A DNA stretch of 16,097 bases from a virus. The position numbers were made by a program, and so were the translations under genes. Of the stretch, positions 2,804 to 7,829 are shown one piece after another. The notes under the pieces are model-generated. The model was not told where the DNA came from. It searched no databases and saw only the letters and a list, made by a program, of their open reading frames with translations. Location of the stretch: the UHGV virus genome UHGV-1827629, one strand, 5' to 3'. Position 1 is the stretch's first letter; each line of letters begins with the position of its first letter.

Positions 2804-3594
2804 TGGATAAGCCCTCTCTCTTTCCCTCGCTGATACTCTTCCCAAAGCCATTGGGCCGGGGTTAGAGCTCCGAGAGTCGCTGCGTTTGGCATGCACCCGA
2901 AGCTTTTTCCTTCCGGGTGATAACCGGCCTGACGGCTCACGTGATTTGTCGGGATCACTTCATCAGAATTCTCGAGCGCCAGGACGGGGGATGGTATTTT
3001 TTCCCCACCAGCAACTTTCAGCGCCCATTCCTCAAGTTTTTTTGACGCGTATTTTTCAGTTTCAGCCTCGCTCAGCTGGCGCTGGTACATCGCTCTGCGC
3101 GTATCGGTCACAATCCAGTACATGACGTCATGAGACCACGGGAAAGCTTCTGCTCCGCCGGTATGCAGCCCTTTTTCGCGGCTATACCGATGGAACTCAT
3201 TCATCACATCAGCCAGGCCAATGCCAAGTACCGTGCCGCTATCCTTGCACCATTTGATGAATTGCCCCGGAGAAGGCCAGAAGGGTGATTCACTGGCGCG
3301 GGCATGCCGTACACCTGCGGAAAGTTGTTCGCGGGTGCGGATCCCATTCTCTGAAAACGCTGCGATCCACTGACGCTTTGCCGTTTTCTCGTCTGCGTCA
3401 GTTTTCAGGTTTGTCTGCGTAGACGCAGGGAAAATCTGCTTCAGCTGCCGAAAGAGAGAATCAACGAGGCTTTCCGCTTCGGGATTTATTACCTTCTGCT
3501 GGTCGGCGTTTCCGTTAGCCATTCTGGATAGCAGTGCCCCGTCACGCCCGTTAACTGCCTGCACAAGTTGGTTATTCACAGGAAGTCCTCCCAT
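2800..3594 (-). CDS. P: Replication protein P-like (DnaB helicase loader)
   Basis: Central block FPAS...RQWIAAFSENGIRTREQLSAGVRHARASESPFWPSPGQFIKWC resembles lambda P (FPAS...RQWVLAFRENGITTMEQVNAGMRVARRQNRPFLPSPGQFVAWC, from memory). Start uncertain: ATG at 3594 overlaps O by 19 nt; alternative ATG at 3522. Confidence 0.75.
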   Translation of the reverse strand: MGGLPVNNQLVQAVNGRDGALLSRMANGNADQQKVINPEAESLVDSLFRQLKQIFPASTQTNLKTDADEKTAKRQWIAAFSENGIRTREQLSAGVRHARASESPFWPSPGQFIKWCKDSGTVLGIGLADVMNEFHRYSREKGLHTGGAEAFPWSHDVMYWIVTDTRRAMYQRQLSEAETEKYASKKLEEWALKVAGGEKIPSPVLALENSDEVIPTNHVSRQAGYHPEGKSFGCMPNAATLGALTPAQWLWEEYQRGKERGLIQ

Positions 3595-4265
3595 CCCTCG
3601 CGGCTGTTCCAGTGAGGCGTTTCCTGCTCAGCACGTCCACGTTTAGCCAGCGGGTTAACCCTGGCGTTTCGAATCCAGACCCTGAAAGCCGAATTCCAGT
3701 CGATCAGCAGCGTGCCGCGGGAAAGGTGATAGTCCCGGAAGTTCAGCAGCTCAGTTTCAATGCTCACCCCCTTCTCGGCAGCCATGGCAATGTGATCTGC
3801 TGATGGCTTAAACAGGGGCGGGAATGGAATCTCCCCGTTTGGTGAAATCCCTATCCGACGTTTTGCGGCTTCGCTCATAAAACCTTCGCGCCCAGAGAGA
3901 GAGTTAGGTTCATTGACTGGTTCAAAAGAGTGACTGATTCTGGGTGCAGCTCCTGCACTACCCCCTAGTGAATCTGTTGCACTACCTAGTGAATCTCCTG
4001 CACTACCCCCTAGTGAATCTGTTGCACTAGGTAAGGTCAGGATGTAGATGTTTGTAGAGTTCCCTTTTGGCCCCTTCCTGAATACTTTTTTCAGTAATCC
4101 AGATTGGCAGAGATCATCAATGTGACTCATGACTGACCGCTTGCTAATTTCGCATTGGTCAGCAATGTATTGATAGCTTGGCCAGCATTCCCCTTGATCG
4201 CTTGCGTTATCTGCCAACTTCAGGAGTACGAGCTTACGCAATGGGTTACCAACCTTAATTTGCAT
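3576..4265 (-). CDS. O: Replication initiator O-like protein (replisome-organizer HTH N-terminus; ori iterons inside the gene)
   Basis: N-terminus [45 protein letters not shown] looks like a replisome-organizer HTH; gene lies between cII and P; contains direct repeats translated as [26 protein letters not shown]. Start ambiguous: ATG 4265 (SD-like GGTGA), 4277 or 4286; the track's 4376 is a TTG extension overlapping the zinc-finger gene. Confidence 0.7.
3952..4030. repeat. Candidate replication-origin iterons: alternating 24-bp (CCTGCACTACCCCCTAGTGAATCT) and 21-bp (GTTGCACTACCTAGTGAATCT) direct repeats, each with a CACTA...TAGTG dyad
   Basis: Read directly: units at 3952-3975, 3976-3996, 3997-4020 and partial 4021-4030, all inside the O reading frame, as lambda ori iterons are. 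Confidence 0.65.
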
Positions 4266-4464
4266 GGCTTTCACCATTAGCATCATGCTCACGATGCAGC
4301 CTCCTGTTATTACTGAATACAAGGTTGACACACTCAAATACGCACTCGTCGCAGATACAAACTCCATCACCGGCAATTATCATGGCGACTTCGTTGTTAT
4401 TTTTTCCGCAAAAAGAGCATTTGTGTGTCGGGTGTAAATTTGCTTTTTTCACATCAATTGGCAT
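4255..4464 (-). CDS. Small C4 zinc-finger protein (69 aa) resembling the ClpX N-terminal zinc-binding domain
   Basis: [32 protein letters not shown] parallels the ClpX ZBD as I recall it ([30 protein letters not shown]); strong SD AGGAG 5-6 nt before ATG at 4462-4464. Confidence 0.6.
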
Positions 4465-4546: not shown

Positions 4547-4768
4547 TCATGCTTCAAAATCTCCATTCACCCCATCCCGGTTTGAAATCAGGATTGCCAG
4601 CAAAAGCGACATGTTCGGAAGCAGGTTTTCCCGCCAGCGACTCACCGTTGATTTGTTAACGCCAGCCACTTCTGCGATTTTTGTCGTACCCAGTTCTGCT
4701 ATCTGGCTGTGTAACCAGCTCTCTATCCTCCGGGCCTCCAGTTTGTTGCGTGTTGTTAAGGTGTCCAT
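4547..4768 (-). CDS. cII: CII-like transcriptional activator (73 aa)
   Basis: LEARRIESWLHSQIAELGTTKIAEVAGVNKSTVSRWRENLLPNMSLLLAIL resembles lambda CII (RIESALLNKIAMLGTEKTAEAVGVDKSQISRWKRDWIPKFSMLLAVL, from memory); GAGGAAG SD upstream; position immediately after cro. Confidence 0.7.
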   Translation of the reverse strand: MDTLTTRNKLEARRIESWLHSQIAELGTTKIAEVAGVNKSTVSRWRENLLPNMSLLLAILISNRDGVNGDFEA

Positions 4769-4808
4769 TTGCGATACTTCCTCTGATTTAATTGGTTATT
4801 GCCGCCGG

Positions 4809-5036
4809 TCAGGCAGCATGGTTCTCTGGGTGTGGAAACAGGTCGGGAAGATCAGGTCGAATTTCGTGTGCCTTAATCTCGCCACCAGTAGCGTTTACGA
4901 TGGCTGTTACTTTTTCCGGAGATACGGAACCACCGTTAAGCCACTTGTGAACCGCTGGCTGGCTAACGCCGCAAATATCTGCGAGTCGCTTCTGGCTGCC
5001 AACGATTTCTAAAGCTCGTTGAATAACTTTGTTCAT
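4809..5036 (-). CDS. cro: Cro-like HTH repressor (75 aa)
   Basis: Short HTH protein (LADICGVSQPAVHKWLNG) transcribed divergently from cI across the operator region. Confidence 0.65.
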   Translation of the reverse strand: MNKVIQRALEIVGSQKRLADICGVSQPAVHKWLNGGSVSPEKVTAIVNATGGEIKAHEIRPDLPDLFPHPENHAA

Positions 5037-5072
5037 GGATTTTACCTATCCGATTACTGGATTAATGAAAAG

Positions 5073-5135
5073 ATAACCTAAGTTATGACCATTGTCCATA
5101 ACCTTTGTTATTTTACTCTGCATAACCTGAGTTAT
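5073..5135. promoter_or_regulatory. OR: three 14-bp operators ATAACCTAAGTTAT (5073-5086), ATAACCTTTGTTAT (5098-5111), ATAACCTGAGTTAT (5122-5135); pR/pRM region
   Basis: Three near-palindromic sites spaced 25 and 24 bp between divergent cro and cI; TATATT -10-like hexamer at 5135-5140 ends 6 nt before the cI ATG. Confidence 0.7.
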
Positions 5136-5146
5136 ATATTGGCGCT

Positions 5147-5851
5147 ATGAAAACATTCGCAGATCGACTCAACGCGGCTATGAGAGCCGCAGGCATATCC
5201 CAAGGGCAGCTGGCTGAGAAAGTCGGCATATCTCAACCTGCAATTCAGAAAATGACATCAGGCAAAACCACAGGCAGCCGTAAGATGGTTGAGCTTGCTC
5301 ATGCATTGAACGTGCGTCCGGAATGGCTCAGTTCGGGCATAGGCTCAATGCAGGACGAAGGACGCAAGGACTCCGCTATCCCACCAGAATCGGAATGGGG
5401 TAAAGTTGACGCTTGGGATAGCAAAACAGATCTGCCAGATGACGAGGTCGAAGTGCCATATCTGAAAGACATAGAACTTGCGTGTGGTGATGGTTCCTGC
5501 TTGGAAGATGACTATAACGGATTCAAACTTCGTTTTGCGAAGTCTACCCTTCGTAAGGTGGGAGCCCAGAAAGATAGCGTGCTGTGCTTCCCGGCATCAG
5601 GAAATAGCATGGAGCCCATGATCCCGGAAGGGACGACGGTCGCCATCAACACGAACGACAAAAAGATCGTTGATGGCAAGGTTTATGCAATAAGCCAGGA
5701 CGGATGGAAAAGGCTAAAATCCATTTATCGTGTGAGTCCTACCCGCATCGTGATTCGCAGCTTCAACAGTGAAGAGTATCCTGATGAAGAAGCGGATATC
5801 GAGAGCGTAGAGATTATTGGTCGCATGTTCTGGACATCTACTATCTGGTAA
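5147..5851 (+). CDS. cI: CI-like phage repressor (N-terminal HTH, C-terminal S24 LexA-like peptidase domain)
   Basis: HTH motif QGQLAEKVGISQPAIQKM; C-terminal GNSMEPMIPEGTTVAINT...WKRLK is the S24 Ser/Lys signature; divergent from cro across OR; no SD and ATG close to the putative -10. Confidence 0.85.
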   Translation: MKTFADRLNAAMRAAGISQGQLAEKVGISQPAIQKMTSGKTTGSRKMVELAHALNVRPEWLSSGIGSMQDEGRKDSAIPPESEWGKVDAWDSKTDLPDDEVEVPYLKDIELACGDGSCLEDDYNGFKLRFAKSTLRKVGAQKDSVLCFPASGNSMEPMIPEGTTVAINTNDKKIVDGKVYAISQDGWKRLKSIYRVSPTRIVIRSFNSEEYPDEEADIESVEIIGRMFWTSTIW

Positions 5852-5865
5852 TCAAGAGGGAAGGG

Positions 5866-6555
5866 ATGAAATTAGAACTAATAGCATTATCTTTACTGGC
5901 TTTAACTACGAACGCAATCGGCTCTAGCACCCTGAGCTGCGATTACGCTAAGTCGGACATCAGTAATGGAGCTAATGCTCCAATGATTCCTAGCGGAAAA
6001 GGCACTGTCGAATTTGATGGAAAATCCTTTAAAGCCACACGTCCAAATGGTGGTGTGATCATTTCACCAATAATCAGTGAACAAAAAAATGGAATGCTTT
6101 TTCTTGACGACAAGACAAAAGTGTTCGCGGCAAGCCTTTCTAAAACTGATTTCGCTATCTCTGACCGAATTGCTCGAATTACTGAGCAATGGGCCAACTG
6201 CATTGATGTTAGTCCATCGCCGAACAATTCAGATAACGACAAACCGGCAACTGCCTGGAAATATAGGTCTCTCACGAAGCAGGAGATAAATGCTGTTGAG
6301 GCAGCAGTGAAAGACCAATTGAAGGATCCAGAAAGTGCCAGATTCAAGCACTCTAAGTTTGTGAGCAACGGGAAAGGCGCTTACTGCGGCCTGGTTAATT
6401 CCAAAAACTCATATGGCGGCTATGCTGGAAACACTCCTTTCATGGTCATGCTTATCAACAATGGCAAACCTCACGCTGGCTTTATTGGTATGGGCGGAGA
6501 TGATGCCGAGACCCTGTCAACGCTATCCGTCTGCAAAGACAGTGGTTATTTCTAA
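5866..6555 (+). CDS. Secreted (signal-peptide) protein of unknown function, 229 aa, 4 Cys; moron in the rexAB-equivalent slot
   Basis: N-terminus MKLELIALSLLALTTNAIG-SS is a typical Sec signal peptide (AxG cleavage site, not a canonical lipobox); SD GAGGGAAGGG before ATG; visibly more AT-rich than flanks with rare Leu/Ile codons; followed by an intrinsic terminator. Confidence 0.65.
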   Translation: MKLELIALSLLALTTNAIGSSTLSCDYAKSDISNGANAPMIPSGKGTVEFDGKSFKATRPNGGVIISPIISEQKNGMLFLDDKTKVFAASLSKTDFAISDRIARITEQWANCIDVSPSPNNSDNDKPATAWKYRSLTKQEINAVEAAVKDQLKDPESARFKHSKFVSNGKGAYCGLVNSKNSYGGYAGNTPFMVMLINNGKPHAGFIGMGGDDAETLSTLSVCKDSGYF

Positions 6556-6573
6556 ACCCCACCTTGATTGAAA

Positions 6574-6596
6574 GCCCCGCATTGCGGGGTTTTTTA
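6574..6596 (+). terminator. Rho-independent terminator ending the cI-moron transcript
   Basis: GCCCCGC-ATT-GCGGGGT hairpin followed by a T-run at 6590-6596, 19 nt after the moron stop codon. Confidence 0.75.
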
Positions 6597-6660
6597 TTGC
6601 CAGAAATCCCCCCACGCCACATTTTTTACAAAAATAAATTCATTTAGCTATCAGTGCATT

Positions 6661-6720
6661 ATAACTTATGTGATGATAATTATAAATTAGGTTATTGCCA
6701 TCACTCATAACTAAGGTTAT
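6661..6720. promoter_or_regulatory. OL: three operators ATAACTTATGTGAT (6661-6674), ATAAATTAGGTTAT (6682-6695), ATAACTAAGGTTAT (6707-6720), inverted relative to OR
   Basis: Reverse complements fit the OR consensus ATAACCTnAGTTAT; spacing 21 and 25 bp; positioned as in lambda between the cI operon terminator and the leftward early operon. Confidence 0.7.
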
Positions 6721-6723
6721 CTT
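6695..6723 (+). promoter_or_regulatory. Candidate pL (-35 TTGCCA 6695-6700, 17-bp spacer, -10 TATCTT 6718-6723)
   Basis: Sigma70-like hexamers with canonical spacing, overlapped by OL sites 1 and 2. Inference only. Confidence 0.5.
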
Positions 6724-7349
6724 TAATCCATCGAAACGAAACATCGACAGCTGAGCGAAGTTAGCCAGCGGCGGACAGCAAGTCGCCTGCTTCTTTAACA
6801 AATCAGACTGAGTGACAGGCAAGCCGTAGCTCTCCTGGCAAAAAGAAATGGCACCCGATGGGATCGAGGTAAGCACTGAGTCCGTATGCGTACGGTAGGT
6901 GTAGAGGACCACGCTGCGATGAGCTGATAAGTCACTCAATTTGAAGCGCTCCGATGATGGGGCGCTGATTCAACTTAGAGGAGTGATTCCAATGAAGAAC
7001 TAAAGCGGACAGACCGCAGCCTAAAGGCAATGCAGCAGTAATGATGCCGCCCTGAGTCGCCGAATGGCGAGCCTGTGTAGTGATGGGTCAAGGTTCTTAT
7101 ATCAAAACAAGCTCCGGTAAAGCAGCGCGAACGCCAGACGCGCACCGGTTATGAGCGGCGATGAGCGACAAGGTCTCAAGGGCATGTGCGCGGCCACTGC
7201 GAGAGTGTGGCGAAGTTTACCAGCAGCTCTTTGCGAGGGGCTGACGGTAAACAAAAAGAGGAGTGTGTATGGCAGATAAAAAAACGGCGCCACTACTGCT
7301 TAACGTAGACGCCAGCGAGGTACTTACTCAGACCGGGGAGCTTTTAAAG

Positions 7350-7571
7350 TTACTTGAACTTCCAGCCAGTTCCTTTCAGGGAATTCCTGAGCATGTCGTC
7401 GATCTGTTTTTTGACCGTGTCCGTGGCCTGATTGACAACATCGTCCTTAGTGATTTCTCGACCACAGTCAGCACAACTGACGCCGGTGAAATTTGTCTCA
7501 AAGTCAAAATCATCGGGCTGGTTGAACATCTCACTTCCGCAGTCAGGGCACACGGTCCGCATGGTTTGCAT
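7350..7571 (-). CDS. Small zinc-ribbon protein (73 aa; CPDCG...CADCG)
   Basis: Two CxxCG knuckles 22 residues apart; AAAGGA SD 7 nt before ATG (cat 7569-7571); by my hand count this frame is more coding-like than the overlapping + frame. The + ORF 7269-7610 is an unresolved alternative. Confidence 0.5.
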   Translation of the reverse strand: MQTMRTVCPDCGSEMFNQPDDFDFETNFTGVSCADCGREITKDDVVNQATDTVKKQIDDMLRNSLKGTGWKFK

Positions 7572-7829
7572 GAATATATCCTTTCTACTGTTGGGGAGAT
7601 TAAAGAGTAAGCGATTTCTTGCTGTTGGGGAATAGCGGGAAAGCGCGCGCCGGGCGCGGATAAATACCCCGGCACTAACTGGAATGTTTTGGGCTGGCAG
7701 ACGGTTATCAGCTAGTTGGTGAGGTAATGGCTCACCAAGGCGACGACGGCCTTCCCTGCTGCTTGAAAGCGGGGAGCCAGCACCAAAACATTTCTCCCGC
7801 ATCAGCGGGTAACGACAGAGGGTAAGGCT

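Follow-up and report, generated by a model that had tools for sequence, protein, structure and literature searches.

A putative lambda-like immunity region of the HK639 type, with shared 14-bp operators and a probably leaderless cI gene

Operators and promoters around cI

The window analysed here, a 16,097-nt stretch of the virus genome UHGV-1827629, carries a cI repressor gene, a divergently oriented cro gene and two clusters of 14-bp sites. The 110-bp intergenic region between cro (minus strand) and cI (plus strand), designated OR, holds three of these sites together with two pairs of promoter hexamers. The other three sites form the OL cluster, which lies downstream of cI and upstream of the leftward early operon; an AT-rich stretch follows the terminator of the cI operon and ends at 6723. 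The coordinates are collected in Table 1. We consider it very likely that 4809–6723 represents a lambdoid prophage's immunity region and that it works like the lambda cI/Cro switch, the binding of the regulators to these sites being predicted from the sequence.

Table 1. Genes, operator sites, promoter candidates and terminator of the immunity region
Feature	Position	Strand	Description
cII-like activator gene	4547–4768	-	Pfam Phage_CII, 2.3e-13; phrog_3638 CII-like, 1.3e-44; first gene after cro on the predicted pR transcript
cro (75 aa), lytic repressor	4809–5036	-	Pfam YdaS_toxin/HTH_3/P22_Cro; Protein Data Bank (PDB) Cro matches 3bd1, 2a63
pR candidate	5070–5098	-	TGGACA (5098–5093), 17 nt, TATCTT (5075–5070); score 9/12
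OR1	5073–5086		ATAACCTAAGTTAT; overlaps pR -10 and spacer
OR2	5098–5111		ATAACCTTTGTTAT; centre at -42.5 from the cI ATG; abuts pRM -35, touches pR -35
pRM candidate	5112–5140	+	TTTACT, 17 nt, TATATT (5135–5140); score 9/12
OR3	5122–5135		ATAACCTGAGTTAT; overlaps pRM spacer and first base of -10
cI repressor gene (234 aa)	5147–5851	+	Pfam HTH_3, 1.4e-10; Peptidase_S24, 4.9e-17
Accessory gene (229 aa)	5866–6555	+	GAGGGAAGGG before ATG; starts 14 nt after the cI stop
Intrinsic terminator of cI operon	6570–6600	+	GCCCCGC-AUU-GCGGGG hairpin and U run; -17.3 kcal/mol, z = -3.25
OL3	6661–6674		ATAACTTATGTGAT; one mismatch to ATAAC-N4-GTTAT
OL2	6682–6695		ATAAATTAGGTTAT; one mismatch; touches pL -35
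pL candidate	6695–6723	+	TTGCCA (6695–6700), 17 nt, TATCTT (6718–6723); score 9/12
OL1	6707–6720		ATAACTAAGGTTAT; perfect; covers pL spacer and -10

An earlier, sequence-only reading of this DNA had proposed a lambda-like architecture in which OR and OL share a 14-bp operator with the consensus ATAACCTNAGTTAT. The operator positions were borne out. With up to two mismatches allowed, ATAACCTNAGTTAT gave seven matches at six places, all confined to 5073–5135 (OR1–3) and 6661–6720 (OL3–1), against 0.13 matches expected from shuffling, and none of 200 shuffles equalled the observed count. The mismatches to ATAACCTNAGTTAT numbered zero, one and zero at OR1, OR2 and OR3, and two, one and zero at OL3, OL2 and OL1, respectively. 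The proposed consensus was nevertheless over-specified, as it occurs exactly at only three of the six sites. The pattern ATAAC-N4-GTTAT, with at most one mismatch, retrieved exactly those six sites in the 16 kb, against 0.20 expected. The OL sites had further been described as inverted copies of those at OR; this holds for the asymmetric central bases only, because the outer 5 + 5 bp are palindromic.

The pR, pRM and pL candidates are sigma-70-like hexamer pairs, called by a scan for consensus hexamers. The pR and pL candidates have an identical -10 hexamer and a matching layout: OR1 lies over the spacer of pR and 3 nt of its -10, and the placement of OL1 and OL2 relative to pL is that of OR1 and OR2 relative to pR. 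The claim that both OL1 and OL2 overlap the pL hexamers stands for OL1, which extends over the whole spacer and into the -10 by 3 nt, but OL2 reaches the -35 by 1 nt only. The centres of the three OR sites lie at -18.5, -42.5 and -67.5 relative to the A of the cI ATG. In lambda, the corresponding operator centres lie at -19, -42 and -66 from the cI start, and the geometry of the promoter hexamers with respect to the operators is almost identical in the two systems. In every respect that could be tested, namely the divergent cI and cro genes, the three-site OR, the three-site cluster at pL, the operator spacing and the helix-turn-helix and Peptidase_S24 domains of cI, the lambda-like proposal held.

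Conservation of the cassette and its HK639 type

To search relatives for the operators, we assembled two sets of loci. For the first set, viral contigs were scanned for two operators spaced 25 bp apart, which yielded at least 120 loci; in 107 of these, a third operator followed at a distance of exactly 10 nt, and the cI gene started ATGAAAAC. This operator-pattern-retrieved set comprised 47 unique OR regions. OR3 followed OR2 by exactly 10 nt in all 47, and OR2 was nearly invariant, with the centre CTTT in 39 of them. Because retrieval by operator pattern fixes the outer bases of OR1 and OR2 by construction, the test was repeated on a second set of 80 viral-contig loci that were retrieved by the N-terminal domain of cI alone (78–100% identity).

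The OR trio was present in all 80 protein-retrieved loci, at -74, -49 and -25 from the cI ATG or one nucleotide further. All 30 outer positions of the OR sites were perfect in 77 of these loci, and the remaining three had a single mismatch in OR2. The conserved operator is ATAAC-N4-GTTAT: the central 4 bp, given as CTnA in the sequence-only reading, vary among relatives, as do the spacers between operators. The OL1/OL2 pair, spaced 25 bp apart, was found in 74 of the 80 loci at 0 to ~2,400 nt after the cI stop codon, and in four of the six loci lacking the pair, the downstream sequence is shorter than 1.6 kb. OL1 was perfect in 73 of the 74 relatives with a pair, whereas OL2 carried one mismatch (ATAAA) in 74/74 and OL3 one mismatch (GTGAT) in 70 of 74 close relatives. 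These conserved imperfections of OL2 and OL3 suggest graded affinities, as in lambda. The candidate pL was likewise maintained, with the -10 TATCTT in 73 and a -35 of the form TTGnnn in all of the 74. Among relatives, cro co-varies with the cassette. In a search of one genome per species (GTDB), the operator-pair pattern gave two matches only, in Kluyvera sp. and Enterobacter bugandensis, which are too few to indicate a host range.

According to a megablast search of phage genomes, the region shares 91% identity over 4801–5337 with phage HK639 (HM208537 / NC_016158). The Cro proteins are identical at 75 of 75 residues. Residues 1–64 of cI match those of HK639 at 58 of 64 positions, and residues 28–41, which include the recognition helix, are unchanged. 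OL1–3 are also identical in HK639, in which the OR sites are ATAACCCAAGTTAT, ATAACCTTTGTTAT and ATAACCTCGGTTAT, such that OR2 is the same and OR1 and OR3 differ in their central bases only. By contrast, the C-terminal domains of the two cI proteins are unrelated in detail: their overall identity, 47%, falls entirely within the N-terminal domain, and other genes follow cI in HK639. By its sequence, then, the immunity cassette is of the HK639 type: it is a known kind of switch, and the specific cassette is already present in a sequenced phage. The sequence-only reading had this cassette define the immunity specificity of the prophage. A defined cassette does exist, but it is not private to this prophage, being that of HK639 and occurring in diverged form in Stx1a phages. 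In complete Escherichia coli genomes, a megablast search with cro, OR and the cI N-terminal domain found the window's variant of the cassette in strain ET729 only. A diverged cassette, with 69–73% identity over at least 80% of the query, is present in another 163 of 5,426 genomes (~3%).

Several observations weigh against a working lambda-like switch at this locus. The hexamer pairs of pR, pRM and pL score only 9/12 each, and the seven promoter-like matches in the region are not significantly in excess of the 3.2 ± 2.1 expected; the case for the promoters rests, therefore, on position and conservation. OL3 is reduced to its left half in more distant relatives. In HK639, whose record annotates no operators, the 'putative pR' feature (HM208537 3752–3780, TGGGTT...GTAATC) is placed ~18 bp downstream of the TGGACA-17-TATCTT pair. 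The latter pair mirrors pL and overlaps OR1 and OR2, and our pL candidate coincides with the 'putative pL' feature of the same record (GenBank HM208537). For the 933W repressor, binding to adjacent sites is reported to be non-cooperative (PMC3317979); as details of the switch can differ among lambdoid phages, cooperativity and looping are assumed here rather than supported. Finally, the literature searched, from which the HK639 genome paper fell outside, contained no binding, transcript or immunity data for the ATAAC-N4-GTTAT operator set and no description of these operators (full-text queries with the six 14-mers; queries for HK639 and Stx1 operators).

It is also conceivable, although unlikely, that a defective prophage has left this region as a relic, in which an intact switch sequence controls no viable phage. 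In its favour, only 16 kb are visible, the late genes lie outside the window and no N-like open reading frame occurs before 7269. However, cI, cro, cII and the other genes of the lambdoid early region, namely those for O-like and P-like replication proteins, RecT, a YqaJ exonuclease and an integrase, are all intact open reading frames, and the operators are perfect or carry mismatches typical of the family. Moreover, HK639, which has the same cassette, forms plaques (GenBank HM208537). A defective prophage would, in any case, not change the identity of the region.

The start of the cI transcript

The sequence-only reading had placed a TATATT hexamer 6 nt before the cI ATG and reported the absence of a Shine-Dalgarno sequence, and both statements were confirmed. 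The hexamer (5135–5140) is followed by GGCGCT and then by the ATG at 5147, and there is no Shine-Dalgarno-like tetramer within 16 nt 5' of this codon. Because the pRM -10 ends 6 nt before the ATG, the predicted transcription start, 7 nt downstream of the -10, is the A of the cI ATG. A start codon further upstream is excluded by an in-frame TAA at 5123–5125.

The comparative data are consistent with this arrangement. A hexamer of the form TA[T/A/G/C]ATT is conserved, with 6 or 7 nt between it and the ATG across the family (6 nt also in HK639), and the bases between the hexamer and the ATG occur in at least 25 different forms. Among the 47 unique OR regions, 39 lack any Shine-Dalgarno-like tetramer over the final 16 nt; in the others, the sole candidates are GGTG or GTGA, which begin 6 nt before the ATG. 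The cI start codon was ATG in 80/80 protein-retrieved loci. Over codons 1–46 of cI, the entropy by codon position was 13.5/8.9/54.1; this concentration of variation at third positions indicates that the codons are translated. In addition, the helix-turn-helix domain of cI requires residues 1–46.

An annotation in a related phage bears on the same codons. In SH2026Stx1 (MG986485), the CI coding sequence is annotated from 3139, 46 codons past the homology-supported start at 3001 (gene 3001–3708), and the deposited protein lacks the helix-turn-helix. We attribute the short annotation to the fact that no ribosome-binding site precedes the true start.

Overall, the cI mRNA is probably leaderless, with the pRM start at the A of the cI ATG. 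The proposal of a leaderless transcript thus gained comparative support from the hexamer, its spacing and the codon pattern, and the 5' end itself stays a prediction. There is a precedent in the lambdoid prophage CP-933P, whose paaR2 repressor mRNA was found to be leaderless by 5' RACE (PMC8630535).

A different account would retain the operators and the switch but have cI translated from a longer upstream transcript, either a cII-dependent one from a pRE-type promoter within or close to cII or another, with TATATT being simply AT-rich DNA next to OR3. Several features point in this direction: the cI 5' end is a prediction, the pRM pair scores only 9/12 and such pairs are common in this AT-rich stretch; given the cII gene, an establishment transcript through OR into cI is expected besides the pRM transcript; and the cI gene of phi80, which encodes a related C-terminal domain, is preceded by a 20-nt leader with GGAG. 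We nevertheless regard this account as quite improbable. TTTAC(T) beside OR2 and TAnATT 6–7 nt before the ATG are kept in all relatives while the bases separating them, and those preceding the ATG, drift, and fixed hexamers separated by drifting bases are the pattern left by a promoter. Furthermore, lengthening the transcript would bring no Shine-Dalgarno sequence to within 16 nt of the ATG, and the geometry equals that of lambda pRM, in which the -10 also lies 6 nt from the ATG and no Shine-Dalgarno sequence is present.

Repressor domains, the proposed switch and neighbouring features

The two domains of cI are a 434-like helix-turn-helix domain (residues 1–64) and an S24 autopeptidase domain (residues ~76–234). 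In a phmmer search of PDB, residues 5–66 matched the 434 repressor (1sq8, 2r63, 1per) with E-values of 1.7e-8 to 5.9e-8 and with the helix-turn-helix in register. cI keeps the residue equivalent to Gln28 of the 434 repressor, whereas Pro, Ala and Lys stand in the places of Gln29, Ser30 and Gln33, which suggests a related but different half-site specificity. Both recognition helices, SQPAIQKM in cI and SQPAVHKW in Cro, have the start SQPA, as expected if both proteins read the same sites. When cI was aligned with its counterparts from HK639, an Stx1 phage and phi80, Ser154 and Lys191 of the S24 domain were invariant. From residue ~76 onward cI resembles the phi80 repressor and, as judged from the alignment, is therefore a mosaic of an HK639 DNA-binding domain (1–64) and a phi80-type linker and S24 domain (~76–234), with a junction near a conserved RPEWLSSG motif. 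The phi80 repressor is cleaved at Cys-Gly, and the ACG-DG site of cI (motif ACGDG) resembles that of phi80 cI; the predicted bond of cleavage here is Cys113-Gly114.

In the switch that we propose, cI dimers would bind the ATAAC-N4-GTTAT palindromes through the 434-type helix-turn-helix. In a lysogen, cI at OR1 and OR2 would block pR, and hence cro, cII and the replication genes, and cI at OL1 and OL2 would block pL and the leftward early operon. Bound at OR2, against the pRM -35, cI would probably activate pRM; at high concentrations it would also fill OR3, over the pRM spacer and -10, and turn pRM off. The pRM transcript would very probably begin at the A of the cI ATG, which would make the mRNA leaderless, and would run through the accessory gene, for a predicted secreted protein, to the intrinsic terminator. 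Cro would bind the same sites for the lytic choice, and on SOS induction RecA would stimulate cI to cleave itself through its phi80-like S24 domain. The sites, with their significance, positions and conservation, the protein domains and the identity with HK639 are observed; that the regulators bind, the order in which sites fill, the activation of pRM, any cooperativity or looping, and the point at which transcription starts are what we infer. That the 14-mers are instead sites of another protein (replication iterons, integrase/Xis arm sites or sites of a host factor) or functionless repeats is scarcely credible: cI binding is a prediction and AT-rich palindromes can arise in intergenic DNA, but the 14-mers occur only at the two places expected of lambdoid operators, each set overlapping promoter hexamers, a 14-bp palindrome suits a dimer of 434-type domains, and the cI N-terminal domain, cro and the sites form one cassette in 80/80 loci, whereas the flanking replication and accessory genes and the cI C-terminal domain change.

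The likeness to lambda comprises gene order and orientation, three operators each at OR and OL, accessory genes after cI and the S24 cleavage domain. The differences are that the operators are 14 bp rather than 17 bp, that OR and OL are ~1.6 kb rather than 2.4 kb apart, and that the helix-turn-helix belongs to the 434/XRE type instead of that of lambda cI. Among solved structures, the 434 repressor comes closest to the cI N-terminal domain. The operators of 434 are likewise 14-bp palindromes in which the outer bases are conserved and the centre varies, and they are read by a repressor and a Cro whose recognition helices begin alike. The half-site is ACAA in 434, in contrast to ATAAC here. The variable centre probably tunes affinity by indirect readout, by analogy with the 434 and P22 repressors, which read the central base pairs indirectly (PMC3317979). 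The likeness to phi80 cI is found in the linker and C-terminal domain (IPPESEWG...DDEVEVP.LKDIE.ACGDG...FPASG.SMEP); phi80 differs in the N-terminal domain, in its 19-bp annotated operators and in having a cI leader with a Shine-Dalgarno sequence. The CP-933P PaaR2/YdaS system is also a lambdoid divergent pair of repressor and Cro-like genes with OR and OL clusters, but its repressor and operators (18-bp palindromes, GTTTAGTAA) are unrelated and it is coupled to a toxin-antitoxin pair (PMC8630535).

Stx1a phages, such as SH2026Stx1 and PA28, encode a cI N-terminal domain 81–83% identical to that of the window, with the same recognition helix, SQPAIQKM, and they have three OR sites and the OL1/OL2 pair at the same spacings. 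They differ in that the cassette shares only ~73% DNA identity, the pRM -10 is TAGATT with 7 nt to the ATG, the C-terminal domain is different and an N gene lies downstream of pL. Given the shared operators, Cro type and recognition helix, and in spite of the different, phi80-type cleavage domain, the prophage may be cross-immune with Stx1a-converting phages of enterohaemorrhagic E. coli, an idea that we put forward tentatively and with some doubt. If it were correct, the prophage would exclude Stx1 phages on superinfection; in a double lysogen, its cI could hold pR and pL of the Stx1 prophage shut or shift the threshold of SOS induction, and the spread and induction of toxin phages would be affected. 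The main use of the present data lies in annotation and classification. They define an operator, ATAAC-N4-GTTAT, with three copies in each of OR and OL, for an immunity group in which HK639 and, with a diverged cassette, Stx1a phages are included, and they account for repressor annotations that in some cases are 46 codons too short. They also add one more probable leaderless repressor gene, without invoking a new mechanism.

The accessory gene downstream of cI has its own Shine-Dalgarno sequence, occupies the position of lambda rexAB and ends at the terminator; its product has an N-terminal signal-peptide-like sequence. It matched phrog_2578 and phrog_2320, both of function unknown, and had no match in Pfam or PADLOC. 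The gene is probably co-transcribed with cI and expressed in the lysogen. On the opposite side of OR, a minus-strand gene between cII and the O-like gene (4255–4464) encodes a 69-aa protein that consists solely of a ClpX-type C4 zinc finger (PF06689, 2.3e-13) and that may interfere with, or mimic, the recognition of ClpX substrates or adaptors. Within the start of cII, and reading toward cI (4740–4780, plus strand), GTTGCgtgttGTTAA is followed ~20 nt later by GATACT; the two could be a cII-dependent, pRE-like promoter.

The top promoter score in the region (10/12) belongs to a minus-strand TTTATA-17-TATAAT pair inside OL2/OL3 (6686 to 6658), directed toward the terminator and antisense to the accessory gene. 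HK639 has a minus-strand gene, HK639_46, on this side of OL. We rejected the pair as a divergent promoter: it is probably fortuitous, as the last T of its -10 varies among relatives.

At its 5' end, the predicted pL transcript shares ~85 nt (6723–6807) with phi80 and HK225 at 95% identity, and of these the initial ~57 nt occur in HK639 too. The ~85-nt stretch contains a hairpin (6770–6787) and a boxA-like sequence, TGCTTCTTTAACAA (6788–6801), that is the counterpart of the annotated phi80 nutL boxA. No N-like open reading frame was found in 6808–7268, on the way from pL to the operon's first gene (7269–7610, a homologue of HK639_45). Rfam searches gave no match for the whole window at gathering thresholds or for 6600–7300 at E ≤ 1. 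The second hairpin of the 'putL-like antiterminator RNA' annotated in HK639 recurs unchanged at 7215–7252. HK639 has the complete RNA in its pL leader; here, only the second hairpin is common and other stems replace the first. This part of the pL leader may be a variant of an RNA-based, put-like antiterminator. The leader also contains a three-codon mini-open reading frame, ATG AAG AAC TAA (6992–7003, plus strand), with GGAG 8 nt upstream.

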